Shown: positions 2,822 to 48,657 of the stretch, one piece after another | Layout of the letters: every line of letters starts with the position of its first letter | How positions within the stretch are numbered: the stretch's first letter is position 1 | From: a virus | Reading direction: 5' to 3' (one strand) | DNA: 64,000 bases | Virus record (IMG/VR): IMGVR_UViG_3300045988_130724 | Span: 1-64,000 of that record | Notes under the pieces: generated by a model | Database searches by the model: none | Told to the model about the DNA's origin: nothing | The model's input: only the letters and a program-made list of their open reading frames with translations | Program-made: the position numbers and the translations under genes

Positions 2822-3244
2822 TTATTTTTCCATTCCCTTTCTGCAATGTTCACACAAGAATTTCTTGGCAACAGGAAACATCTTCTGACCGACATATCCG
2901 CTGAGATATTGTGCTTCCTCTCCATAAGGGTCAATCCCGAAAGCCTTGGAAATATGCCGGCATAAATGACCTTTTTCGTGGTCCCACGAATTTTGAAACT
3001 GTTCGGGGGTAGAAGTCAAAGAGAGCACCATTACCGTCTCTCTTCTCCTGTAGTCCGAATAGGTAAGTCCGGTATTCATCCTGCCTTCCATCAGGTTGCG
3101 ATACGCACGTTTGAGGGAATCCCCCCTGCATCCTATACGGTACAGGTCGGTAATGATTTCCTTAGCCCAATAAGTGTGTACCGCATAATACACCTTGACG
3201 TGCCAGTCCCCATATCTTGGTATGTAGAACTCCTGCACAATCAT
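2822..3244 (-). CDS. small HExxH protein (putative Zn metallopeptidase, possibly M78/ImmA-like)
   Basis: 140 aa with 'WDHEKGHLCRH' (HExxH). Its start overlaps the stop of the upstream gene (ATGA). Confidence 0.4.
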   Translation of the reverse strand: MIVQEFYIPRYGDWHVKVYYAVHTYWAKEIITDLYRIGCRGDSLKRAYRNLMEGRMNTGLTYSDYRRRETVMVLSLTSTPEQFQNSWDHEKGHLCRHISKAFGIDPYGEEAQYLSGYVGQKMFPVAKKFLCEHCRKGMEK

Positions 3245-3660
3245 ATCACATCCGACCAGATTACAGGAATACCTTTACCGATGCAGGTGGCAAAAAACTC
3301 GTCAAACGCCCTGCAAGGATCGCCATCAATATCATCAAGGTAGCATTTTATATGCTTGCACAAATGTGCTTCGTCAACCAATGATTTTTTGAAAAAATCC
3401 GCTTTCAACATATTTGCAACATAGGCAACGTCATATCCTTTGTCGTGTTCGATGGTAATTCCGTTTGCTTTGAGCATATCGTCCACCTCATCTTTACTCC
3501 AAGGGTCAAGTTTCTTTTCCTTGCCTGTTGCCTCGTCTTTCACTTTCATTTTTGAAACAGCCCATTCGTAAAGTTTTTTACTGAAATGGAATCCGTATGA
3601 TTCCAGGTATTCTTGCATTCCTGATGGGAATTTGCTATATGTATCTAATCTTTGTTCCAT
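3241..3660 (-). CDS. hypothetical protein, translationally coupled to the HExxH protein
   Basis: 139-aa ORF. 4-nt overlap with 2822..3244. No motif recognised. Confidence 0.55.
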   Translation of the reverse strand: MEQRLDTYSKFPSGMQEYLESYGFHFSKKLYEWAVSKMKVKDEATGKEKKLDPWSKDEVDDMLKANGITIEHDKGYDVAYVANMLKADFFKKSLVDEAHLCKHIKCYLDDIDGDPCRAFDEFFATCIGKGIPVIWSDVI

Positions 3661-4001: not shown

Positions 4002-4555
4002 TTCTTGTTTTTAGATGCTTCAACCACTCCGAGCTGTTCCATTAACTTCTGATTCTGTGCAATGAGGTCAGCCATATTTTTGCTCATTTCCTGCATGTTC
4101 TTATCCATATTGGACATTTGCCCTTTCAATGCGGATATTTCCTGCTCCTGCTGTTGCTTGGCTGCAAATTCAGGGTTCAGCATGGCAAGCATTTGGTCAC
4201 ATACCCTAAGAAAGTTCTGATGATATTCCACACTTTTTAGGACATCCTCACTTTTCTGCTTCATGGTAAGGACCTCAGTATTCATTTCGTCTCTTGACCC
4301 TGTAATCAGCATCCCTGTCTTAATATCATCGGCAATATTGGCATTAGCCGGTATCTCTTGCAAATTGACATTCTGTCCGTTTATATTCACGACAAAATCA
4401 ATAACCTGTACCGGCTGTGGATAAGGCATGTTGGGAACAGTCTTATATATGGTTTTTATGGGGCTTACATTAACGACCTGCCCACATTCCAAACTTGGAT
4501 TTGCACCTCTATGAAGAAGATATAATGTACTGTTTACTCGTAAGTTTTGAAACAT
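3998..4555 (-). CDS. hypothetical protein with Q/E/M-rich C-terminal coiled coil
   Basis: 185-aa ORF with C-terminal 'AAKQQQEQEISALKGQMSNMDKNMQEMSKNMADLIAQNQKLMEQL'. Confidence 0.55.
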   Translation of the reverse strand: MFQNLRVNSTLYLLHRGANPSLECGQVVNVSPIKTIYKTVPNMPYPQPVQVIDFVVNINGQNVNLQEIPANANIADDIKTGMLITGSRDEMNTEVLTMKQKSEDVLKSVEYHQNFLRVCDQMLAMLNPEFAAKQQQEQEISALKGQMSNMDKNMQEMSKNMADLIAQNQKLMEQLGVVEASKNKK

Positions 4556-4624
4556 GATTGTTTGATTTTAAAGGAGTGTGGCTATTCCCATTTTGGAAAT
4601 CACCACAAAACTCCATGTTAATTA

Positions 4625-5041
4625 TTACTTGCTCCTTAAAGAAGCTGTTTCTGCTGTAGGAGCCGGAGCCGTTGTCGGTCTGTATCCACCATTAACAAGA
4701 TACAATTCGTTGGTGTACTTGTTATAGTGAATTTCATAGATGCCTGTTCCGGCTAAGTTTTCAACAGTCACAGGCTCATTGTTATAAGCCATCAACGGTC
4801 TTGTGTCCCCATTAGTCCCTATCAGTATCGGAAGAGTTGCAGTCGTGCCGGCAGGTATAGCCTGACGGAGGCTGATATAGAACCCTCCAACATAATCCCT
4901 GTTACGGAATGCGTGGTTAGGAAGTTCCAAAGTAACATTCTCCGTGCCGACGGTCACAGCCACCGTAGGAAGAGTGTTGAAATTTGTTCTTCCGATTGAT
5001 GGGAATAGGGATGGGAATCCTGTAAAAAAGTTAGGCCACAT
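4625..5041 (-). CDS. hypothetical protein (start moved to the internal ATG)
   Basis: The track ORF 4625..5128 overlaps the upstream gene by 65 nt. The ATG at 5041 ('MWPNFF') removes the overlap. Confidence 0.5.
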   Translation of the reverse strand: MWPNFFTGFPSLFPSIGRTNFNTLPTVAVTVGTENVTLELPNHAFRNRDYVGGFYISLRQAIPAGTTATLPILIGTNGDTRPLMAYNNEPVTVENLAGTGIYEIHYNKYTNELYLVNGGYRPTTAPAPTAETASLRSK

Positions 5042-25946: not shown

Positions 25947-26017
25947 ACAATAAATGACATAGTTAGAGCCACAAACACACAAAATATATTCAACTGTTTA
26001 TTTTTCCTATCTTTAAT

Positions 26018-26048
26018 TTTGTTTATATTATTATATAAATTACATTTG
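26018..26048 (+). promoter_or_regulatory. Bacteroides-type promoter of the + strand moron
   Basis: TTTG at 26018-26021, a 19-nt spacer, and TACATTTG at 26041-26048 (TAnnTTTG). The ATG at 26078 lies 30 nt downstream. Confidence 0.55.
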
Positions 26049-26077
26049 TACAATATTACAAAGTAAAAAGCAGAGCA

Positions 26078-27202
26078 ATGGATTTTAAGGATCAAGTTAC
26101 ACAGCTATCTGATAATATAAAAAAACAAAAAGACAAGATAGCTACAGAAGAAGCTACAAAAAACGCATTTATAATGCCAATGATTGCAGCCTTAGGATAC
26201 GATGTTTTTAACCCTTTTGAGGTCGTGCCTGAAATGGATTGTGACTTAATAAAGAAAAAAGGAGAAAAAATCGATTATGCCATAATGAAGAATGAAAATC
26301 CTATACTTCTTATAGAATGCAAACACTGCAAGCAAGACCTAAACCTGCATGACACCCAACTACAAAAATATTTTGTAGCGTCAAAAGCGCGTTTTGGCGT
26401 GCTTACAAATGGAATAGAGTATAGATTTTACACCGACCTGGAGAAAATAAACATAATGGATGAGAAACCGTTTCTTGTCGTGAACATGCTTGACTTATCA
26501 GATGCGGATATAGAGCAACTAAAGAAATTCCATAAGTCATATTACAATGAAGAGGATGTTCTAAGTACGGCAAACGAATTGAAATACACGACAGAAATAA
26601 AATCAATATTGAATAACGAATTTGCATCACCTACAGCAGAATTTGTTCGGTTCTTTGCACGTCAAGTCTACACTTCAGGGCAAATCACATCAAAGGTGAT
26701 AGATATGTTTACCCCACTCGTTAAGAAATCTATCACATCTGTTATTAATGATATTATTTCTGATAGACTAAATACAGCTATAAAAAACAGCGAGCAAACA
26801 TCTGACTCACTCCCAACGATAGACAATACATCCATAAATACTTCCACAGAAGATACAGAAGAGAAACTCCCGGGCGGAGTTGTATACATGGATAAAGAAT
26901 CCGGTGTCGTAACAACACAAGAGGAATTAGATGCCTACAACATCGTAAGAAGCATTTTAAGAAAAAGTGTGGATGTGGCTCGCATAACCTATAAAGACTA
27001 TAAAAGCTACTTCGTTGTAAATATTGATAACAGCCAATGGTACTGGATATGCCGTATTTCTATCGGAGCAAGAAAAAAGCAAATAGGAATACCGGCAGAC
27101 CAATATAAGAGTTGTGAATGGATTCAGATAGACAACGCGGATGATATATTCAAATATGCAGACAGACTTGAAGAAGCATTAAAATTAGCAATGGGGGAAT
27201 AA
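26078..27202 (+). CDS. PD-(D/E)xK nuclease-fold protein, type I restriction HsdR-N-terminal-domain-like, with an uncharacterised C-terminal domain
   Basis: 374 aa. 'IDYAIMKNENPILLIECKH' (D...ExK) and 'FGVLTNGIEYRFY' resemble the HsdR_N family. It is on the strand opposite to the tail genes. Confidence 0.55.
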   Translation: MDFKDQVTQLSDNIKKQKDKIATEEATKNAFIMPMIAALGYDVFNPFEVVPEMDCDLIKKKGEKIDYAIMKNENPILLIECKHCKQDLNLHDTQLQKYFVASKARFGVLTNGIEYRFYTDLEKINIMDEKPFLVVNMLDLSDADIEQLKKFHKSYYNEEDVLSTANELKYTTEIKSILNNEFASPTAEFVRFFARQVYTSGQITSKVIDMFTPLVKKSITSVINDIISDRLNTAIKNSEQTSDSLPTIDNTSINTSTEDTEEKLPGGVVYMDKESGVVTTQEELDAYNIVRSILRKSVDVARITYKDYKSYFVVNIDNSQWYWICRISIGARKKQIGIPADQYKSCEWIQIDNADDIFKYADRLEEALKLAMGE

Positions 27203-27220
27203 TTATTAAAAGCGTACATT

Positions 27221-27925
27221 ATGAAAAGAATTTTATTTTTTATGGCAATGTTGCCTATGTTTTTTTTAACAGCTTGTTCAGATGACAATGAAATACAAAA
27301 AGATGGAGAGACAGGAAATGGAAATCCGCCTTTATCTTCCATTGTTGGAACTTGGGAAAGTGGAAATTATTTTGTTTCATTTGGAGAAGATGAATTTTAT
27401 TCCGCATATATAGCAGATGAATTTATTGACAGTGGAGACTATAAACAAACAGAAAACGAGGTTACATGTTCAAATAATTACTTTAATAGAAAAACAGTCT
27501 ATACTATTAAAAACATATCTAAGACAGAGATGAAGGTGCAAGTTTCATATACCGACCTGTATGGAAAAACTAATAGCAAAGACATGACTTTTACAAAGTC
27601 AAATGAAACCATAGTATCAAAAAGCAACACGTTGGCAGGTAAATCCATTACATCATATTCTTCTTACTTTGGAAATGTTACAAGAACATTTAATTCCTTT
27701 AATGCTGGGGTAAAATCAGCAACAAAAGGTAGTGCCGCAAAATATCCTTTAAATTTTTTCTATATCTATATCGGAAATAAAATGTATCATCAAGTTCTAA
27801 GAAACAACTCAATTCAAGTTCCTAGTATTGGAGGTTGGTCAACAAACTACAATGAGGTGATATGCTGGGAATTGCATTTCTCTGCCAATGGTTCTATAGA
27901 TAGTTTCGATAAAATCGAAATATAA
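27221..27925 (+). CDS. lipoprotein (lipocalin-like?)
   Basis: 234 aa. Signal peptide with lipobox 'MLPMFFLTAC'. 'GTWESGNYFVSFGEDEF' is typical of Bacteroides lipocalin-like lipoproteins. Confidence 0.7.
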   Translation: MKRILFFMAMLPMFFLTACSDDNEIQKDGETGNGNPPLSSIVGTWESGNYFVSFGEDEFYSAYIADEFIDSGDYKQTENEVTCSNNYFNRKTVYTIKNISKTEMKVQVSYTDLYGKTNSKDMTFTKSNETIVSKSNTLAGKSITSYSSYFGNVTRTFNSFNAGVKSATKGSAAKYPLNFFYIYIGNKMYHQVLRNNSIQVPSIGGWSTNYNEVICWELHFSANGSIDSFDKIEI

Positions 27926-27934
27926 AATAAATAC

Positions 27935-27965
27935 ACAATGTCATAGTTTTAAACTATGACATTGT
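27935..27965. terminator. bidirectional hairpin terminator between convergent genes
   Basis: Near-perfect inverted repeat acaatgtcatagttt / aaactatgacattgt, followed by a T-rich stretch. Confidence 0.6.
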
Positions 27966-28053
27966 TCTATTTCACCGATAAATCACGAAAGTTTTTGTAT
28001 AACCCTCGTGATTTTTTTGCCTTTTATTTGTCGCGCTGTTCTATTTGTCGTAT

Positions 28054-28767
28054 TCAGTCCCATCTCATAGCCTTAATCCTTGCCATATTTGCCGGATCAT
28101 CGGCATTGATGATATCACGGTCTTGAGGTATGTTAACTCGCTTACGTTCCTCGTCAGACAAATATATGGATGTTACGGAATCGGCAAGAAGCAATTGTAA
28201 ATTGGCATAGCTAATACCCCAAACAACATATTCAAAAGTCCATCCGTACCGTTGACAAGCTGTATCTATCAATGTGCCATATATACTTTTGCCGCCAAAT
28301 GTAAGAGAATTATTATCCTTCTTGGCTCTCATAGCTTTTGCTTGCCACTCTTTTTCCTTATCTATTCCAAGGTGTTTCATATATGCTGATATGTCTCCTT
28401 CAGGCAATACCATAACCAACAGTTGTGCCATGCTGTCATCGTCAAGCTCCTTGCAGAAGAAATCGCACCTTTCCTGTACGAGATTGCAGTCAAACAGCTC
28501 ATCTTTCTTATTGATGGTATGATAGGACAAAATACGGCACACGCTTTCTTTTTTTCCCTGACACAGTCTCAACGCTTCCATATACGGATTAGCCTTGATA
28601 ATTTCCAGATTTATGCCAAGACACTCCACAATCCTTGATATTAGGTATGTTTTTCCAAGAGTAACCGGATATAGATAAAACTGACGTTGATTTACTTTAA
28701 AACCATGCGGACGTTCAATTATAGTATCCGCAATGTCCATGTCTATAAGTTTCCCATCTTCTAACAT
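28054..28767 (-). CDS. tail assembly chaperone candidate (by position)
   Basis: 237-aa ORF between the tail tube candidate and the tape measure gene (with the moron in between). I found no slippery-site or frameshift partner. Confidence 0.35.
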   Translation of the reverse strand: MLEDGKLIDMDIADTIIERPHGFKVNQRQFYLYPVTLGKTYLISRIVECLGINLEIIKANPYMEALRLCQGKKESVCRILSYHTINKKDELFDCNLVQERCDFFCKELDDDSMAQLLVMVLPEGDISAYMKHLGIDKEKEWQAKAMRAKKDNNSLTFGGKSIYGTLIDTACQRYGWTFEYVVWGISYANLQLLLADSVTSIYLSDEERKRVNIPQDRDIINADDPANMARIKAMRWD

Positions 28768-28983
28768 AACAGTTCTTGTTTTTTTTAATTAATGCCGGAT
28801 ATCTTCACAGACAACCGGCATGAAAAGACATATGAACAACAAATCAAATTCTCAAAATCGAGCGGAAACACAGATTCGGACTGTGACCTCATATCTGGTT
28901 GATATGTGTGCATCCATTACACCATTTCCGCAAAACACGTGAGTACAAAGCCCCCACGCTTGGCATTACCTATCAAAAACTTA

Positions 28984-29526
28984 TTACCCACCGGGATTGG
29001 GAGCAACTTCAAATTTATCTCCATCTCCGGATGTGTCTTCCGGATCACATTCAATCTTAGTTGGCTTACCAGAAGCAGGCGTTGTTATAATCTTGCCCCA
29101 TTGAATCTGTTTTTTGTCCGAACCCGGTTTCAAGGCATCAAAAGTATACGCCCAAATACCACCATCTGCCGCTGTAAATGAATCCTCAACAGAAACGGTA
29201 GTTTTCTCCATACAGAATCCCTGAACATCAGGATCTTCGGGCTGCAAAGCAACAGCATAATTATGTGCTACCACTCCATCACTATCACTTATAGGACGCT
29301 TACGCCCTTTTGCAGCACGAATATTGAAAGTAAGAGCATAGGTGTTTTTTCCATACTTTACATCCTCGTTCTCTCCTCCTTCAATCTTTGCTTCTTTCTT
29401 GTCACCTTTTGTTGTTGTCAACTGTGTGGAATCCTCTACCGGAGTAGGCAATTCTTCCCATGAAGGTGATACTGCATCAAGGTCTTTAATAAAAATACGG
29501 GGCTTACCCCATCCGATTACTGCCAT
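28984..29526 (-). CDS. major tail (tube) protein candidate
   Basis: 180 aa. The call rests on its position after the head-tail joining genes and its beta-rich composition. Confidence 0.5.
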   Translation of the reverse strand: MAVIGWGKPRIFIKDLDAVSPSWEELPTPVEDSTQLTTTKGDKKEAKIEGGENEDVKYGKNTYALTFNIRAAKGRKRPISDSDGVVAHNYAVALQPEDPDVQGFCMEKTTVSVEDSFTAADGGIWAYTFDALKPGSDKKQIQWGKIITTPASGKPTKIECDPEDTSGDGDKFEVAPNPGG

Positions 29527-42791: not shown

Positions 42792-43153
42792 TCGTCATCG
42801 TCCGGCAATTCCTGCATCAATTTTTCAAACTGATTCACATTCACATCCTGCTCCACTTTTTCAACATAACCTCTATGCTTCATTTTGGTCTTGCTTAGCC
42901 AAATAAGCATAGTATTATCTTGTTCCGTCAGAGCTTTGGCAAACATTGTCGTTTCTAGCTTATCATAGAAACTTTCTTCTACTTCTTTCCATTTTTCGGC
43001 AAAATCTGGATCATTCGCTTTCCATTTATAAGCGATTGAGCGTGATATTTCCACAGCCTCACAAGCTGCGGTAACATTCAACATCCTTGCGTCCAAAGCT
43101 TTTAAGAATTTCGCTTTCTTTTGCCTTGTATTAAGCCTGTACTTCTGTGCCAT
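42788..43153 (-). CDS. terS: terminase small subunit (HTH)
   Basis: 'MAQKYRLNTRQKKAKFL...VTAACEAVEISRSIAYKWK'. An alternative upstream ATG lies at 43174. Confidence 0.6.
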   Translation of the reverse strand: MAQKYRLNTRQKKAKFLKALDARMLNVTAACEAVEISRSIAYKWKANDPDFAEKWKEVEESFYDKLETTMFAKALTEQDNTMLIWLSKTKMKHRGYVEKVEQDVNVNQFEKLMQELPDDDE

Positions 43154-43841
43154 CTTTATTTCCCTCCAATACATTGTTTACGATTTCCAACATTTTACAA
43201 ATACTCAAAGCTTGAGCCTTGATTTTATACTTGGCTTGCACTTTAGCTGATACTTCATTCAACCGGTGCATTGTATCCATATCCACCAAAGTTAGATTAC
43301 CAAGCTCTTTTTCTGAATAACATTCCAACGTTTCCATGAGTTTATCAAACGAAACCTTCTGCGTATCAACAAACATAAGAGTTACAGGAACGATTTCGTT
43401 ATTCGGCATTTCAACCGTATAGTTGATATCCTTTACACTTTCCAGAACTTCATTGCTGATATGCGCATACTCTTTCAGTGCGACATCTGTTATTTCATCA
43501 AGCAATTGCTTCAGAATCTCCGCATCGTCCTGCCCAACTATACTGTTATGTGACAATTGTGTTGCCAGCAACCAATCGTTTGTAGTTTCCTCTTCATCTA
43601 TGTACATAACATGGATGGAAGTAAGCCCAGCCATTTTTGCCGCTTGCGTCCGGTGATTACCACTCACCACCGTATAAGAGCCATCCGAATGCCTTACACA
43701 AAACGGTACGGACGACAATTGACCGTCCCTACGAATATTATTTACCAAGGCATTAAACGTGTCCTGTTGCATGAAATGCGCATTTTTCTTGACCAGCTTA
43801 ATGTCTGATAACTGTACTTCCGCTATCTTGAATTTTCCCAT
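43131..43841 (-). CDS. ParB N-terminal-domain (ParB-like nuclease/CTPase fold) protein
   Basis: 236 aa. 'VQLSDIKLVKKNAHFM' and 'YTVVSGNHRTQAAKMAG' fit the ParB/Srx motif. Confidence 0.7.
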   Translation of the reverse strand: MGKFKIAEVQLSDIKLVKKNAHFMQQDTFNALVNNIRRDGQLSSVPFCVRHSDGSYTVVSGNHRTQAAKMAGLTSIHVMYIDEEETTNDWLLATQLSHNSIVGQDDAEILKQLLDEITDVALKEYAHISNEVLESVKDINYTVEMPNNEIVPVTLMFVDTQKVSFDKLMETLECYSEKELGNLTLVDMDTMHRLNEVSAKVQAKYKIKAQALSICKMLEIVNNVLEGNKDGTEVQA

Positions 43842-43844
43842 ACA

Positions 43845-45932
43845 TTACTCCTTTCTCGGCTCATCACCGTATTTTTTTACAAAAGCTTTTAAAATATCAT
43901 CCAATTTTCCACGAATACCCGCATCTTGTATGTAATGGAGTTTACCAACACAGCGTTCATGCAGTCTGAACACTCCCCGATACTTCATACTTACCGGTTT
44001 ATCGGTAAATACAGAAGTGGCAATCACCCCACATTCATGTTTATACCTTATACCCAACTCTGATTTAAATTCTGATGAAAGAACGCCCATTATTAGTAAT
44101 CGGCTTAACTTAGGCAGAGGGTGGTCTATGACAAAATCCGATTTCATCCAAACTGCATCCATGCCGTATTTGCTGACCTTCAGGAAGTCAAACATACAAG
44201 CTCCGAACACGTAATCATCCAAGAACCACAAATAACAGAACGGAGCTGATCCGAGTATGATGCCTTTCTTCAAGTAAATCATGCGCAGATAATCAATTTC
44301 TGCCATAGAAGCACGAACAAACCGGAGTTTGCTATTATTTGTAAGTACGTAATCGTCTGGCAACCGTTTATATTTTAGAGGGATGATAGTTCGCTTGTTA
44401 AAACTGCTGTCTCCACTTTCTACCACATTAGACCAAATATATGTGCGTTGGTCTTTGAATACCTCTCTTCTGCCCATAAATCCATGCTGCGAGAGAGCCA
44501 TGTAATTAACTTGTTCTTCATCTATTTCTGCATATTTCGTTTTAGTTCGTTCTTGAGATCCAAAATCATCCAATAAGAAACGCTGTAATGCGTTGCTTGT
44601 GGCTTTCATACCGGAATGAAATTCATTCTGATAGATTAATATGTCATTCTCTTTGCAGTTAAGAATTGCATCTGATATATCAGCACAATAAAATACTTCA
44701 ATAGACTTACTTTTAAGGCTGTCTACGAGCTTTTGGTAACGTTCCGTATACTTTTTATGGTAATGCTCCAATTTTGCCATAAAATCGTCATAAAGCGACT
44801 TATGGTAAATATCTTGTGAGTTCTTATGCTTCTTGATGGCATTGAACAGATGGATAGTGGCAATAATTTCAGCCGGACTTTCAGACTTGATATTCAGAAA
44901 CTCATATTCATCATTAAAACGCAGTTCTTTTATCTCTCCCTTGATTGCTTTATACATCATGTAGATAAAATACTCCTTTGTATACACCTTAATCTCACGG
45001 TTGGTAAGTATTTGCTCTATATCCATATAGTATGAGTTTACCACATGGGCTACATCAAACTTGGCCGCTTCTTTCTTGATGAAAGAAAGCATACGATTTG
45101 ACTTCTTGAACATGGAACCCACTATCGTAACATTATCCGAATGTTCTGCCGCCCAAAGCAACGGTTTGTGCCTTTGGGGAACTTTAGAATAATCAATATG
45201 GAACGCTTCAATACATTTATCAATTGTAGTGAGTTGCTTATATTCCTCCATGTCTTCATGTAGATAGGCATACTCCACGAATGAATACATGAATTTGATT
45301 GTTTCCAGAATTTTATCGAAATCCCAGGAGCTATTGAAGATCCTAAACTCTGCCGTTCCTATCTTTTCAATAGAACATAAATTAAGCCAGTACCGGATGT
45401 GTCCTCTATCTGAACCATTGCTAAAAACTTTCAGTAGATTTTCAATAGTATCTGCTTCCAATACACGCTTCACTACATCCCAAGGAGGGCTTGGTACGAG
45501 ATATTTTGTTTCCCACCACTCCGCAATATCGAATATCCGTTTGATTGGATATGCAGTATAATAAGAGAGAACAAACATACGCTTGATAACATTTAAGTCC
45601 ATGTCCTTGATGTACAGATGCGCATCAAAGCCTTCATTCCACATAAGATAGCTCCCTGCATCTTTCATGGTCTGAATAAACTCCTTCATTTCTTGTAAAT
45701 CTTCTGCGCAATAATGGTACGGTCGAGTATTTATCTCACCGCCAAACTGGCCGTGATGTGTAACTGCTGAACCGTCTGAGTTATTCATCATGGTCAGCTT
45801 GTTATCCGTCCACTTGTAACCTGATGGAAGTGGTATGCGTTGTTTGTCACCATCCGCAAACTCTAGTTCCATACCAAATGTTCGATTGGATATGTAGCCT
45901 ATCCACCTTTTATCTATATTCATGTTCTGCAT
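43845..45932 (-). CDS. amidoligase (glutamine-synthetase-like COOH-NH2 ligase, Amidoligase_2-type) fused to a large uncharacterised C-terminal region
   Basis: 695 aa. The N-terminal ~230 aa carry 'FGMELEF', 'GGEINTRP', 'GFDAHLYI' and 'GTAEFRIFNSS'. The last ~170 aa ('FGACMFDF...KLSRLLIMG...TSVFTDKPVSMKYRGVF') weakly resemble Mom/GNAT-like acyltransferases. Confidence 0.65.
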   Translation of the reverse strand: MQNMNIDKRWIGYISNRTFGMELEFADGDKQRIPLPSGYKWTDNKLTMMNNSDGSAVTHHGQFGGEINTRPYHYCAEDLQEMKEFIQTMKDAGSYLMWNEGFDAHLYIKDMDLNVIKRMFVLSYYTAYPIKRIFDIAEWWETKYLVPSPPWDVVKRVLEADTIENLLKVFSNGSDRGHIRYWLNLCSIEKIGTAEFRIFNSSWDFDKILETIKFMYSFVEYAYLHEDMEEYKQLTTIDKCIEAFHIDYSKVPQRHKPLLWAAEHSDNVTIVGSMFKKSNRMLSFIKKEAAKFDVAHVVNSYYMDIEQILTNREIKVYTKEYFIYMMYKAIKGEIKELRFNDEYEFLNIKSESPAEIIATIHLFNAIKKHKNSQDIYHKSLYDDFMAKLEHYHKKYTERYQKLVDSLKSKSIEVFYCADISDAILNCKENDILIYQNEFHSGMKATSNALQRFLLDDFGSQERTKTKYAEIDEEQVNYMALSQHGFMGRREVFKDQRTYIWSNVVESGDSSFNKRTIIPLKYKRLPDDYVLTNNSKLRFVRASMAEIDYLRMIYLKKGIILGSAPFCYLWFLDDYVFGACMFDFLKVSKYGMDAVWMKSDFVIDHPLPKLSRLLIMGVLSSEFKSELGIRYKHECGVIATSVFTDKPVSMKYRGVFRLHERCVGKLHYIQDAGIRGKLDDILKAFVKKYGDEPRKE

Positions 45933-46788
45933 ATCTCAACTTGACTAATGATTTATAATTGGGAACAAACGTAACCACATCACCAATGCAATAATTTGAG
46001 ACATAGTCACACTCCATAATTGAGTATTCACTAGAACTATCTACAAACTTCAAATTGGTACAATCACTAATTTGACACTTATCTAAGTCTACCATTGAAT
46101 AGCCACAATCCAAAATCAATTGATTACGTTCTGGGTAAATACCTATAATCCTTGTTTCGATTTCTATACCATTAAGACCCTTTCTCACCTCATAATTACA
46201 ATATGGGATTGTGCCAAACAACATATATTCACCAATACGAACATCACTTATGAAACTAGGCAGTTTACTATTTTGCCCAAGCCAAAAACTACCTCCCAAG
46301 CTGATAGACTCAATATCATTACGCAGGAGATTCCAGATACGGAACAGTTCTTTTTCCGAAGGGTGATTTTCATTCAGACAACCGGAAGTAATCAAACCAT
46401 ATATATGGGAGCTTGAAAGTGTCCTTATTTCATTGGCCAACTTACTTGCTTCATAAATGCTTAAGCCTTCTCTATTATCACATGCATTAATCGGAATATA
46501 AAAATTATGTATTCCTTGGCACGCATTTCCATTGATAGTAAGATATTTCCAAACATCCGCAAATGATGTAACCACAGCGCCGCTATTCCCCTTTACTGCC
46601 TTTCCGATAGAATAGCATATACTGTCTTTTAAATGGAGTCCAAAAATCTTATTTCTTATTTTATCCGATATATGCTCATAAATATCTTCATAAAAATCCT
46701 TGAACATTAACGAAATAGGAACATTAACAAGTGTTCGGGATTTCTCGATATTCTCAATGATATTTTTGGTATAAACTATAACTTTCAT
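45910..46788 (-). CDS. alanine-racemase-fold, predicted amino-acid racemase-like (COG3457/YhfX-like) protein
   Basis: Motif series 'GKAVKGNSG', 'CDNREGL', 'ISLGGSFWL', 'DVRIGEYMLFG', 'DSSSEYSIMEC', 'IGDVVTFVPNYKSL'. The start is set at the ATG at 46788 (ATGA coupling). The track start at 46797 is a GTG. Confidence 0.55.
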   Translation of the reverse strand: MKVIVYTKNIIENIEKSRTLVNVPISLMFKDFYEDIYEHISDKIRNKIFGLHLKDSICYSIGKAVKGNSGAVVTSFADVWKYLTINGNACQGIHNFYIPINACDNREGLSIYEASKLANEIRTLSSSHIYGLITSGCLNENHPSEKELFRIWNLLRNDIESISLGGSFWLGQNSKLPSFISDVRIGEYMLFGTIPYCNYEVRKGLNGIEIETRIIGIYPERNQLILDCGYSMVDLDKCQISDCTNLKFVDSSSEYSIMECDYVSNYCIGDVVTFVPNYKSLVKLRYAEHEYR

Positions 46789-47714
46789 AGCTCCCACTTT
46801 AAGATTAGACGTTCAATCCCTTTGTATTTGATATCTCTTTTGAATGAGAACCCTGCATTGATGAAGCTCTTCATGCTTGCCTCATTCTTGGGTGATGTCA
46901 TAGCAAATATCTCTTGTACACCATTAGAAACCAATTTTGCTATATTTGCATTAATAAGTATATACTGGAATCCGTTACCCCTATAATCAGCATGAACAAA
47001 ACATTTATCCACGTAGGCAGTACCATATTCAGTAAAGTACGTAAGAGAATAGGCAACCAGCTTGTCATTTACCAGTAACCCGAAACTGCAACCGGATTGC
47101 AGGCATTTCACTATATCTTCCTTTTCAGAAGGAAAACACATATCAGGATTAACAAAAAGAGTTTGCTCCATTTTTTCAATATCGGATGTATCAGATATAG
47201 ACAATACTTTCACTTGTATCTTATACTCAATATTTCCTTTTTTTACTGGAAACAATGGTTCGTAACGGTCAATCCATGCTTTAGATAGGAATGTGTCTAT
47301 GTCAGTTTTAGGCAACAATGCTTTTCTGTAACTGTCAAAGATGCCCAATACAAACTCTTTATGTTTGGTAAGTTGTTCATTCTTCAACGGACACTTACCA
47401 CTACGAAAGACAAAACTTTTCTTTACCGATTTTACCCACAAGGGGTAAGTACGACACATGATAGGCTTATAACCATTGTCACATGACTTACAGTCTCTGG
47501 CGAAACATTTTGCCTTTTTACCGCCAAAATAATCATCGTCTATAATCTGCAAATGGGAGATTTCTTCTTGGTGCCCATCAAGTTCATGGGGCAATATTAC
47601 AATATGCCCGTCCGACCCGAACGAACAACATTTCCAACCGCAACCGGAGTTTTCACATGCTCTTATTAGTCCTTTTTCGTCCATATATTTGGTTGTATAT
47701 AACTTCATATACAT
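46785..47714 (-). CDS. YkgJ-type Cys-cluster domain fused to a GNAT acyltransferase
   Basis: 309 aa. N-terminal 'CENSGCGWKCCSF' and 'KPIMCRTYPLW'. C-terminal GNAT motif A 'HADYRGNGFQYIL' and 'SMKSFINAGF'. Confidence 0.7.
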   Translation of the reverse strand: MYMKLYTTKYMDEKGLIRACENSGCGWKCCSFGSDGHIVILPHELDGHQEEISHLQIIDDDYFGGKKAKCFARDCKSCDNGYKPIMCRTYPLWVKSVKKSFVFRSGKCPLKNEQLTKHKEFVLGIFDSYRKALLPKTDIDTFLSKAWIDRYEPLFPVKKGNIEYKIQVKVLSISDTSDIEKMEQTLFVNPDMCFPSEKEDIVKCLQSGCSFGLLVNDKLVAYSLTYFTEYGTAYVDKCFVHADYRGNGFQYILINANIAKLVSNGVQEIFAMTSPKNEASMKSFINAGFSFKRDIKYKGIERLILKWEL

Positions 47715-47908
47715 TTTGCGTTAAATGCCTGCCGAGCGTATTCCCGACAGGCTTAACACAAAATTCAATCATCTATAAGTCACTCACAAGAACACCTATG
47801 CAATCTATTCGGCTTCTTTACAGTCGTGTCAGATGGCAATTACCATCACCCCGTAAACTGCACAAGCTTTTATGTTCTTGCTTCTGCTTATCGCTACTAT
47901 AAGGGTTG

Positions 47909-47978
47909 AGCGGAAACAGGGAGTCGACCCCCACTCTTTGGCTGGAATGCCAACGCTCTACCGATGAGCTATTTCCGC
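47909..47978 (-). tRNA. tRNA-Gly(UCC)-like gene with non-canonical architecture (possibly non-proteinogenic or a pseudo-tRNA)
   Basis: - strand sequence: GCGGAAA-TA-GCTC-ATCGGTA-GAGC-G-TTGGC-ATTCCA-GCCAA-AGAG-TGGGG-GTCGACT-CCCTG-TTTCCGC-T. The acceptor and D stems are perfect. The anticodon loop has only 6 nt, the variable loop has 4 nt, position 54 is G, and no CCA is encoded. Confidence 0.5.
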
Positions 47979-48183: not shown

Positions 48184-48588
48184 TTAGAACAAACTTGCTT
48201 GTTCGTACTTAGGTTCTTTCTTCTCAACTACTCCAAATTCTGTTATCTCAATGCCAGTCTTTTCAGTAAGCCACTTTGCCAAAATATGCCGATGGCAGAA
48301 ATCACCTGGTTTTTCATAACAGCAGAGAGCAACATCTTTACCTTCACTGTGTCGTTGGATAGTTTGAATCAATTCTTGCGGATTGACTTTTGCAAGAACA
48401 TCATTCAAATACATACTCGTGTACTCTTCATAAGTCCATTTATCATCCAACATGTATCTTCTTGGTGCAACCTCTATGATCTGAGGTGCATTATAAAATC
48501 TTGGCCTCCCTAACGCAACACATATCATTTTTACGTTTGCAGCTGCTAGTTTTCTGTAATTCCCGAAATAACTTGTATAAATCCTCAT
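48184..48588 (-). CDS. DUF488-family protein
   Basis: 'MRIYTSYFGN' and 'CCYEKPGDFCHRHILAKWL'. The start is set at the ATG at 48588; the track start is 48639. Confidence 0.65.
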   Translation of the reverse strand: MRIYTSYFGNYRKLAAANVKMICVALGRPRFYNAPQIIEVAPRRYMLDDKWTYEEYTSMYLNDVLAKVNPQELIQTIQRHSEGKDVALCCYEKPGDFCHRHILAKWLTEKTGIEITEFGVVEKKEPKYEQASLF

Positions 48589-48657
48589 TGCTTTATTTTT
48601 ATGGTGTAAAGATACTAAATATGGCGTAAAAAGCGCCACATTTAGTCATAAATTTAT

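Follow-up and report, generated by a model that had tools for sequence, protein, structure and literature searches.

The Mom protein of phage Mu, a GNAT-fold enzyme, transfers glycine from Gly-tRNA-Gly onto atom N6 of adenine in double-stranded DNA, and the adduct then rearranges on the base (Silva et al., Nat Commun 2026, PMC13219725; preprint 10.1101/2023.03.24.534169). The enzyme accepts all three glycine isoacceptors of E. coli but not Gly-tRNA-Ala, and Silva et al. speculate that it recognises the 3' acceptor end of the tRNA (PMC13219725). They present Mom as an enzyme that draws on resources scavenged from the host, and a phage tRNA is not mentioned (PMC13219725). Modification of DNA at the expense of a charged tRNA has been established recently, and only for Mu Mom with a host tRNA. 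Here we analysed 64,000 nucleotides of viral DNA (positions 1 to 64,000 of the IMG/VR record IMGVR_UViG_3300045988_130724), referred to below as the window, which carries on its minus strand, at 47909..47978, a tRNA-Gly(UCC)-like gene whose anticodon loop is constricted.

Glycine tRNAs set aside from translation are familiar from Staphylococcus, where non-proteinogenic tRNA-Gly species that bind EF-Tu weakly feed the FemXAB peptidoglycan transferases. These species have a normal 7-nt UCC loop, a replaced G18G19, changes in the D and T loops and T-stem pairs that weaken EF-Tu binding. A preliminary description of the window had speculated that the element at 47909..47978 is likewise a dedicated non-translational glycyl donor for a linked GNAT enzyme. 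The comparative evidence gathered below strongly supports the core of that idea. The enzyme then named, the GNAT fusion encoded just downstream, is an unlikely user. The reading that we favour, and consider somewhat probable, is that the element is a phage-encoded, non-decoding tRNA-Gly mimic which can be charged by glycyl-tRNA synthetase (GlyRS) and which supplies glycyl groups to a GNAT-fold DNA-modifying enzyme. We arrive at a glycyl donor because Mu Mom transfers glycine from Gly-tRNA-Gly to DNA adenine and because the family to which the element belongs adjoins Mom-type genes.

The constricted-loop gene and its close relatives

The odd glycine tRNA gene at 47909..47978 (-) is real. The Rfam tRNA model RF00005 matches it over the full model with 47 bits against a gathering threshold of 29 (E = 6.7e-7 for the 64-kb window), and the only model position absent from the alignment lies in the anticodon loop. 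ARAGORN, run on the window, reports 47908..47978 (-) as 'tRNA-???' with the two-base anticodon 'tc', which corresponds to a 6-nt loop. Minimum free energy folding yields a cloverleaf in which an anticodon stem of 5 bp bears a loop of 6 nt (-29.5 kcal/mol, z = -3.0). The element comprises a 7-bp acceptor stem (GCGGAAA/TTTCCGC), a D arm with GG in its loop (GCTC-ATCGGTA-GAGC), an anticodon arm closed by C31:G39 (TTGGC-ATTCCA-GCCAA), a variable loop of 4 nt (AGAG), a T arm with U49:G65, G50:U64 and G54 (TGGGG-GTCGACT-CCCTG) and a discriminator T (U73), followed by CAA, so that CCA is not encoded. The fold first described, with its acceptor stem, D arm and anticodon stem, can therefore be read directly from the sequence, as can the short variable loop and the missing CCA. 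The loop measures 6 nt with a 5-bp stem or 8 nt with a 4-bp stem; 7 nt is impossible, and on the 6-nt loop ATTCCA the sequence, ARAGORN and the Rfam gap agree with the original observation. The element thus lacks what defines a canonical elongator tRNA-Gly, namely a 7-nt loop with U33 and a non-Watson-Crick 32/38 combination.

The identity set of bacterial GlyRS reportedly consists of G1:C72, C2:G71, G3:C70, U73, C35 and C36. All of these positions are present in the window element, as had been noted from the start. In a scan for sigma-70 promoters and terminators, a type of scan that does not suit Bacteroidota, nothing rose above chance, and megablast of the region against GenBank phages gave no match.

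Related viral loci were then retrieved by protein-guided search, yielding about 147 loci at 79-100% protein identity. At every one of those that included upstream DNA (about 145), the element was found on the gene strand with the same loop. Its sequence occurs in 20 variants among these close relatives, and the loop reads ATTCCA in all but one of them (GTTCCA). The most diverged locus, L133 (79% protein identity), shows compensatory changes in the acceptor, D, anticodon and T stems and retains ATTCCA, G1-C2-G3 and U73. Since the related loci keep the loop, and the diverged relative keeps it through compensatory changes in the stems, we ruled out a sequencing error or recent decay. The normal 7-nt loop that a recent loss would have left in the closest relatives is not seen there.

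A tRNA pseudogene or a relic of an attachment site, the alternatives named in the preliminary description, would account for the one missing loop base, and the window phage does appear temperate. Both are contradicted by the conserved loop and the compensatory changes, by the more than 100 distinct sequences of the wider family with 98% pairing, and by a position that is internal, near the terminase genes, and not at a prophage end. We regard this explanation as effectively refuted.

Not all peculiarities of the window element are shared. G54, although present, occurs only in the window and in one other variant (3 of 144 matched locus records), the T loop starting with TTCGA in all other variants of the close relatives. 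The two G-U pairs of the T stem are likewise present in the window and replaced in relatives, which have U49:A65, G50:C64 and A51:U63. The argument for weak EF-Tu binding that had been built on these pairs and on G54 consequently rests on features that are not conserved. Measured against the staphylococcal type, the window element also differs in keeping GG in the D loop and in its 6-nt loop. Among the relatives, the next gene lies anywhere between about 30 and about 1000 nt from the element.

In many relatives canonical tRNA-Phe, tRNA-Ser or tRNA-Cys genes lie just upstream of the element. The companion tRNA-Phe of L036 and L038 (3140-3213) has the anticodon AAA and not GAA; other relatives carry a small tRNA cluster with Phe(GAA), Ser(GCT) or Cys(GCA).

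A family of glycine tRNA mimics and its gene neighbourhood

Covariation was assessed on an alignment of 25 diverse family members. In this alignment 98.1% of the cells are paired, and the covariation score is 0.86, compared with 0.25 for shuffled and at most 0.19 for slid alignments. Pairs 1:72, 2:71 and 3:70 are G:C, C:G and G:C in 25/25 members, while pairs 4 to 7 vary freely; U73, C35, C36 and A37 are invariant as well. The equivalent of pair 32:38 is C:G in 20 members, U:A in 3 and A:U in 1, the 25th row being the window element, which is shifted by one base in the alignment and whose C:G pair is C31:G39. Closed by this covarying Watson-Crick pair, the anticodon loop measures 5-6 nt. At position 34 the base is either U or A, G38 or A38 covaries with position 32, and the bases between positions 32 and 34 vary in number and identity, U33 often being A. 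Various members have lost features that decoding needs and a donor could do without: the open 7-nt loop, U33, a regular T arm and elbow, and in some cases the D arm. As pairs 1-3, U73 and C35-C36 are the invariant positions, the conserved part coincides with the GlyRS identity set, and by this sequence comparison GlyRS identity is kept across the family while the features of decoding decay.

An altered loop size is a classic route to frameshift-suppressor tRNAs such as sufD, and glyT mutants cause -1 shifts. A recoding tRNA, whose 6- or 8-nt loop would read two or four bases at GG-rich sites and produce -1 or +1 frameshifts in phage genes, would fit the altered loop in the same way, and could be related to a second element of the window that lies among unannotated, possibly tail, genes (28861..28931, see below). 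The variation in the family speaks against it: 32:38 covaries as a Watson-Crick pair, leaving loops of 5-6 nt, U33 is not conserved, the extra base is located 5' of position 33 and outside the anticodon, T arms are degenerate and some versions have no D arm. The linkage described below is moreover to Mom and GNAT genes and not to any slippery site. We consider recoding very unlikely.

In the window the element lies between a gene for a DUF488-N3a protein and the GNAT genes. Several lineages at about 40-50% protein identity have a tRNA-Gly-like element in the same slot, most of these being invisible to ARAGORN and Rfam and found with nhmmer or by eye. Their loops differ: TTTCCAA in L158-160, which is canonical and scores 61.5 bits with Rfam, CTTCCAG in L171, L229 and L240, CATCCAG with an A at position 33 in L148/149 and L170, CATTCCAG in L241 and TAGTCCAA in L239. 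The L148 element has a degenerate T loop and a D loop without GG. Where present, the element is always found between the DUF488 gene and the GNAT genes. Two side observations concern these slots. Upstream of the tRNA-Gly-like element of L171, positions 170-286 give a 117-nt Rfam tRNA match of 32.9 bits with a 43-nt insertion and no ARAGORN call. Between the element and the GNAT gene of L170 lies a 164-aa open reading frame (ORF), homing-endonuclease-like by eye (4266-4760).

Together with the tRNA-Phe, tRNA-Ser and tRNA-Cys genes of canonical type that lie directly upstream of the element in many relatives, such canonical versions with a 7-nt loop, found in the same slot of L158 and L255, would suit an ordinary translational tRNA-Gly that supplements codon usage and whose odd loop is tolerated. 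We judge this highly improbable, given that a 7-nt loop cannot be formed in the window element, that the family shows loss of U33, a Watson-Crick 32:38 pair, ACC anticodons and bulged or degenerate T arms, and that canonical phage tRNA-Gly genes are unlinked to the enzymes concerned.

That last point was established by a search that started from the RNA. Viral contigs were scanned for a GCG acceptor, an AGGTGT...GCAY D arm and TCCA, giving at least 120 loci; the matches were filtered with an nhmmer profile and the neighbouring genes annotated. Among the matches listed, elements with aberrant loops (CATTCCAG, CAATCCAG, CTATCCAG and CATCCAG) are situated 0-24 nt downstream of genes of the Mom family PF25680. 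These Mom genes score 1e-32 to 6e-50 against PF25680, and one of them matches Mu Mom itself (tblastn, 2e-19). A ParB_N gene is found just upstream and terminase genes just downstream of the Mom and element loci. In L254 and L255 the element is located beside a DAM-like plus GNAT-phage-like protein without amidoligase, and in L281 beside an HNH plus GNAT-phage-like protein. Counting unique sequences among the matches listed, 17 aberrant loops are near such a module and 5 are not, whereas 1 canonical loop is near and 25 are not (odds ratio 85, Fisher p = 9.5e-8, a value that overstates the evidence because the loci are related and phylogenetically non-independent). Canonical tRNA-Gly genes (CTTCCAA, CTTCCAC etc.) have an unpaired 32/38 combination.

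A complementary search started from the protein. An alignment of one Mom subfamily retrieved more than 582 relatives, of which the best 80 were kept, and their surroundings were searched with a structural finder. To count as an element, a sequence needed a D stem, a 7-bp acceptor of the GCG/CGC-U type and, around CCA, no fewer than 5 of the 6 anticodon-arm pairs, 32:38 among them. For these best 80, an element was detected within -150 to +500 nt of the end of the Mom ORF at 76 loci. The same finder gave 0/1600 in shuffled regions and 0/73 in upstream regions. Consistently, the tRNAs called by ARAGORN within 1.5 kb of the best 80 Mom genes were Gly(tcc) (18), '???(tc)' (8), Gly(acc) (3) and '???(ac)' (1), and nothing else.

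The orientation of these 76 elements, 44 on the Mom strand and 32 opposite to it, argues for a trans-acting RNA product and not for a cis signal in the mRNA. It thereby bears on a further alternative, according to which the tRNA shape only punctuates a polycistronic mRNA by being cut by RNase P and RNase Z and the released RNA has no role. As punctuation would have it, the element in the group of the window invariably shares the strand of the genes and occupies a gap between ORFs, and at many Mom loci its start is no more than about 20 nt from the stop codon. For such a purpose any tRNA shape would do, yet all elements are of the Gly type with invariant GlyRS determinants and C35-C36-A37, and with the opposite-strand cases we give punctuation very little credit.

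Element pairs were also found between a dUTPase gene and the start of a 385-aa DruA-like gene (PF14236) in L250 (5785-5930), L326 (3087-3232) and L272 (6477-6549), with the loops CTTTCCAG and ATTCCAT. The arrangement is a hint that glycyl-tRNA may be used by DruA-like proteins as well. Genes near the DruA-linked elements code for a DNA polymerase B and for a ribonucleotide reductase that contains an intein.

The family could accordingly be delineated by a GCG...CGC-U acceptor, a complementary pair closing the loop around (N)N-[U/A]-C-C-A, and an adjoining Mom, GNAT-phage-like or DruA-like gene. The window element, with its C:G-closed ATTCCA loop and PF22559 in its module, has these features, and its 'C-ATTCCA-G' class is the commonest (CATTCCAG, 34 unique sequences, a raw count in which some chance matches are included). 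The T stem divides the family: a bulged A on the 3' strand is conserved in the Mom-linked subfamily (GGCGG...CCGACC, GGGG...CCACC; e.g. L367-L446 and L362), unlike the regular T stem of the window subfamily. In L281 two elements flank the HNH domain (PF01844) fused to the GNAT-phage-like domain (678-1460).

The window itself contains a second member, a tRNA-Gly(ACC)-like element at 28861..28931 (-) with the loop C-AACCA-G (A33), identified by ARAGORN and folding with z = -2.4. Its acceptor GCGGAAA/TTTCCGC is identical to that of the element at 47909..47978, and it scores under the Rfam threshold. It is flanked by unannotated late genes of 180 aa (28984-29526) and 237 aa (28054-28767). We found this element in 19 viral contigs; at least 9 of these have the module as well.

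Among cultured phages, the Psychrobacter phage vB_PmaS_Y8A (OQ059336; our locus L362) has two tandem mini-tRNAs, at 3162-3229 and 3234-3302, in the 165 nt that separate the gene of a Mom homologue (49% identity) from that of the small terminase. They are unannotated in GenBank and receive no ARAGORN call. Both lack a D arm. Each has a 7-bp GCG... acceptor and U73, after which the gene itself encodes CCA; the loop TTCCC sits on an anticodon stem of 7 bp, and the T arm has a bulged A. By sequence, the class of mimics would thus have nearly complete cloverleaves, with the loop closed at 32:38, at one end of its range and minis devoid of a D arm at the other.

Taken over the whole family, we think it slightly better than an even bet that many double-stranded DNA phages (of Bacteroidota, Proteobacteria and mostly unassigned hosts) encode a hitherto unrecognised class of aminoacylatable, non-decoding tRNA-Gly mimics as private glycyl donors for tRNA-dependent DNA hypermodification. 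By implication, PF22559 proteins with Dam-like and amidoligase domains, and at least some DruA-like proteins (PF14236), would be Mom-like tRNA-dependent aminoacyl-transferases.

The gene module and the candidate enzyme

All genes of the module in the window are on the minus strand, in the order DUF488-N3a, element, 309-aa protein, 295-aa protein, 695-aa protein, ParB_N, small terminase and large terminase. The upstream neighbour of the element, at 48184..48639, is the DUF488-N3a gene (PF22751, E = 4e-10), also recognised by synteny. Downstream, 46785..47714 encodes the 309-aa fusion of a Cys-rich N-terminal domain with an acetyl-CoA-type GNAT (Pfam Acetyltransf_1, AlphaFold model and foldseek), 45910..46797 a 295-aa protein of unassigned function that is conserved in the module and has a weak D-Ser-dehydratase-like Pfam match under the cutoff (E = 6e-4), 43845..45932 the 695-aa enzyme, which combines a GS-like amidoligase, a Dam-like and a GNAT-phage-like domain (PF12224, PF22555 and PF22559), and 43131..43841 a ParB_N (ParB/sulfiredoxin-like) protein (PF02195). 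The gap between the element and the GNAT fusion, first given as 195 nt, is 194 nt to the ATG at 47714; the homologues start 10 codons later, so the true start is probably 47684, at a distance of about 224 nt.

Homologues of the 695-aa protein were found down to 28% identity, and the arrangement DUF488 / small GNAT / ~290-aa / ~680-aa / ParB_N / terminase is conserved among their loci; the domain content of the shorter homologues was taken from Pfam. ParB_N is a constant partner both of the GNAT-phage-like modules and, by matches to local hidden Markov models (HMMs) beside the Mom and element loci, of the Mom modules. With the region conserved in this way and the link to GNAT and amidoligase genes strong, two findings that could have undone the original proposal are set aside. 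A close homologue of the 309-aa protein resides on a 4.1-Mb Paraprevotella contig, hence the temperate appearance of the phage. The host, judged from protein names only (Paraprevotella xylaniphila and a Bacteroidetes metagenome-assembled genome), is probably a member of the Bacteroidota; in the species-representative genomes we found no match to the RNA pattern and none to the 695-aa protein.

The 309-aa protein had been proposed as the user of the tRNA. It contains a single GNAT domain with the CoA motif YRGNGFQ, and its AlphaFold2 model (predicted local distance difference test, pLDDT, 83) best resembles Naa30/Naa50, PaiA and RimI, with template modelling (TM) scores up to 0.85. The 50 best foldseek matches listed are all acetyltransferases of the acyl-CoA type, with no Fem or L/F-transferase among them. 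A Fem-like, tRNA-using role was therefore rejected for this protein, which does not have two GNAT-like domains, possesses the CoA loop and shows no likeness to FemX or FemA. Speculatively, it might acetylate an amine on the adduct. Its N-terminal domain (residues ~1-160) has 8 invariant cysteines (C..GCGWxCC ... C, C, C, C), gave no Pfam match and does not figure among the 50 best PDB fold matches listed. In some lineages (L158, L148) the domain forms a separate ORF; within the pathway it may act as a metal or Fe-S domain. A PF03692 CxxCxxCC protein is encoded after ParB in L152.

For the 695-aa protein, an AlphaFold model with pLDDT 87 supports three domains, for which foldseek returned GNATs (Naa60, 2oh1, and Mu Mom 8bv8_B at rank 5 with E = 1.2e-3 and TM 0.49), E. 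coli Dam and the Pup ligase PafA. The C-terminal domain has the GNAT fold (PF22559, E = 3e-26). No CoA glycine loop (Q/RxxGxG/A) is present in its sequence, and it is the sole GNAT at the element-bearing loci L254, L255 and L281. As it has no CoA loop, is the only GNAT at these loci and is fused to a Dam-like domain that would handle adenine, the GNAT-phage-like domain is the better candidate: judging from sequence, the tRNA user is most likely this domain rather than the adjacent acetyl-CoA-type GNAT.

The favoured reading can be put as a sequence of steps. The element would be transcribed and trimmed, and CCA added by host enzymes. Host GlyRS would charge it with glycine, as the element retains the complete glycine identity set. 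The Watson-Crick pair at the 32:38 equivalent would pinch the loop to 5-6 nt and bar the RNA from the ribosome. The glycyl-RNA would then serve as acyl donor for a GNAT-fold enzyme, most likely the GNAT-phage-like domain of the 695-aa protein. The Dam-like domain would offer it an adenine, following the Mu Mom pattern, and elaboration of the glycyl adduct could then fall to the amidoligase and the neighbouring acetyl-CoA GNAT. Such a private carrier would provide stoichiometric glycine for genome-wide modification with translation neither drained nor perturbed.

Several points weigh against this scheme, in which transcription, charging by a GlyRS that would have to tolerate the pinched loop, exclusion from the ribosome and donor use are predictions. 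None of the GNAT domains of the window matches PF25680, and a local Mom HMM finds nothing in the window. The GNAT-phage-like domain is not significantly similar to Mom with hhalign (E = 0.59 and 0.044), phmmer and a profile search of this domain against the PDB found nothing, and foldseek places Mom only fifth among generic GNATs. As homology to Mom cannot be demonstrated, the domain would work like Mom by inference and not by membership of the Mom family. The second element of the window lies 19 kb from the module and far from any recognised GNAT. Finally, the DUF488 gene abuts the GNAT gene with no element in between in L150-157, L161-169, L172 and L228, and there is no space for one in several further cultured Mom phages, among them Mu. 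An obligate coupling of element and module is thereby ruled out, since several lineages carry the module alone; the element is accessory and host Gly-tRNA evidently suffices.

The same conserved features could serve a decoy or regulator that donates no glycine and instead binds the GNAT enzyme, restraining its toxicity, or GlyRS, or a host toxin or defence nuclease directed at tRNA-Gly. Linkage to GNAT genes and conservation of the acceptor and of C35-C36 would suit binding equally well, the RNA repair ligase RtcB is encoded in the module of L153-155, and Gly-tRNA-Gly is the target of known GNAT toxins (TacT, cited in PMC13219725). What is conserved, however, is exactly the GlyRS identity set, suggesting that charging matters, and the chemistry of Mom already needs this very co-substrate. 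The ends of the RNAs point the same way. Proteobacterial tRNA genes usually encode CCA; in our family the genes of the Psychrobacter phage include CCA and those with a probable host among the Bacteroidota lack it, which looks like maturation as an acceptor. A decoy or regulator is in our view unlikely, and a glycyl donor is the reading we retain.

Some further features of these loci were recorded. The RtcB gene directly follows that of a 684-aa modification enzyme in L153-L155 (9057-10133) and also in L161, a lineage without the element. In L165 (8106-8191, -) and L233 (6951-7036, -), a putative 'tRNA-Ile(gat)' of 86 nt, called by ARAGORN, directly follows the big gene on the other strand. In the window, an ORF of 374 aa that contains the type I restriction domain HSDR_N lies at 26078-27202 (+), on the strand opposite to the module, within a low-GC stretch (26000-28000) that forms a 33% GC island with reversed GC skew; the region looks like a moron or defence cargo.

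Comparison with known systems

Donors of the tRNA-Gly type acting outside translation (Staphylococcus and Fem) and tRNA-dependent DNA modification (Mom) are already known. Literature searches on 6-nt loops in phage tRNAs, on the Pfam domains concerned and on phage tRNAs together with Mom found, in the literature covered, no earlier description of such a gene. A virus-encoded carrier, the disabling of decoding by loop closure and the systematic linkage to Mom and to two other GNAT-type families appear to be new. These genes are missed by standard tools or labelled 'tRNA-???', and they are unannotated even in the cultured phage genome OQ059336. The hypothesis can be tested directly in this cultured phage, vB_PmaS_Y8A.

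If the reading is true, viruses would have evolved a dedicated aminoacyl-RNA supply for DNA chemistry, in parallel with staphylococci and by a different trick for escaping the ribosome. The RNA would then be a genomic marker predicting the use of aminoacyl-tRNA by uncharacterised GNAT families (PF22559 fusions and DruA-like proteins) and would bring their chemistry within direct experimental reach. It would also reveal natural minimal determinants of GlyRS charging and Mom recognition (acceptor stem, C35/C36), useful for orthogonal carriers.

Ordinary phage tRNA clusters resemble the loci in genomic style, with canonical Phe, Ser and Cys genes beside the element in relatives, but ordinary phage tRNA-Gly genes differ in their neighbourhood, being near Mom or GNAT genes in only 1/26 cases among the matches listed. 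Frameshift suppressors of the sufD type, which have an 8-nt loop, share a loop of other than 7 nt and the tRNA-Gly background. In the suppressors the extra base lies within the anticodon and U33 and an open loop are kept, whereas here it lies 5' of position 33, U33 is dispensable and 32:38 is paired.

Other virus-encoded tRNA mimics that keep synthetase identity elements are the tRNA-like structures of plant RNA viruses (turnip yellow mosaic virus, brome mosaic virus and tobacco mosaic virus), which can be aminoacylated, have a CCA end and do not decode. Those are cis-acting 3' ends of RNA genomes with roles in replication and translation, whereas the present element is a free-standing gene of a double-stranded DNA phage beside DNA-modifying enzymes.

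The likeness to Mu Mom lies in the neighbourhood, Mom-family genes (PF25680) being immediate neighbours of many RNAs of the family, and ParB_N and a late, terminase-proximal placement being recurrent. Unlike the window phage, which carries an aberrant tRNA-Gly of its own, Mu has no tRNA gene and uses the host isoacceptors, and the window enzyme, a PF22559 protein that has Dam-like and amidoligase domains joined to it, shows no sequence homology to Mom that could be detected. With the staphylococcal tRNA-Gly species, finally, the element would share the role of a dedicated glycine carrier for a GNAT-fold transferase, here putative, with glycine identity kept and translation avoided. There the gene is cellular and the acceptor a peptidoglycan precursor; here the gene is viral, the loop is closed at 32:38 and the presumed acceptor is DNA.

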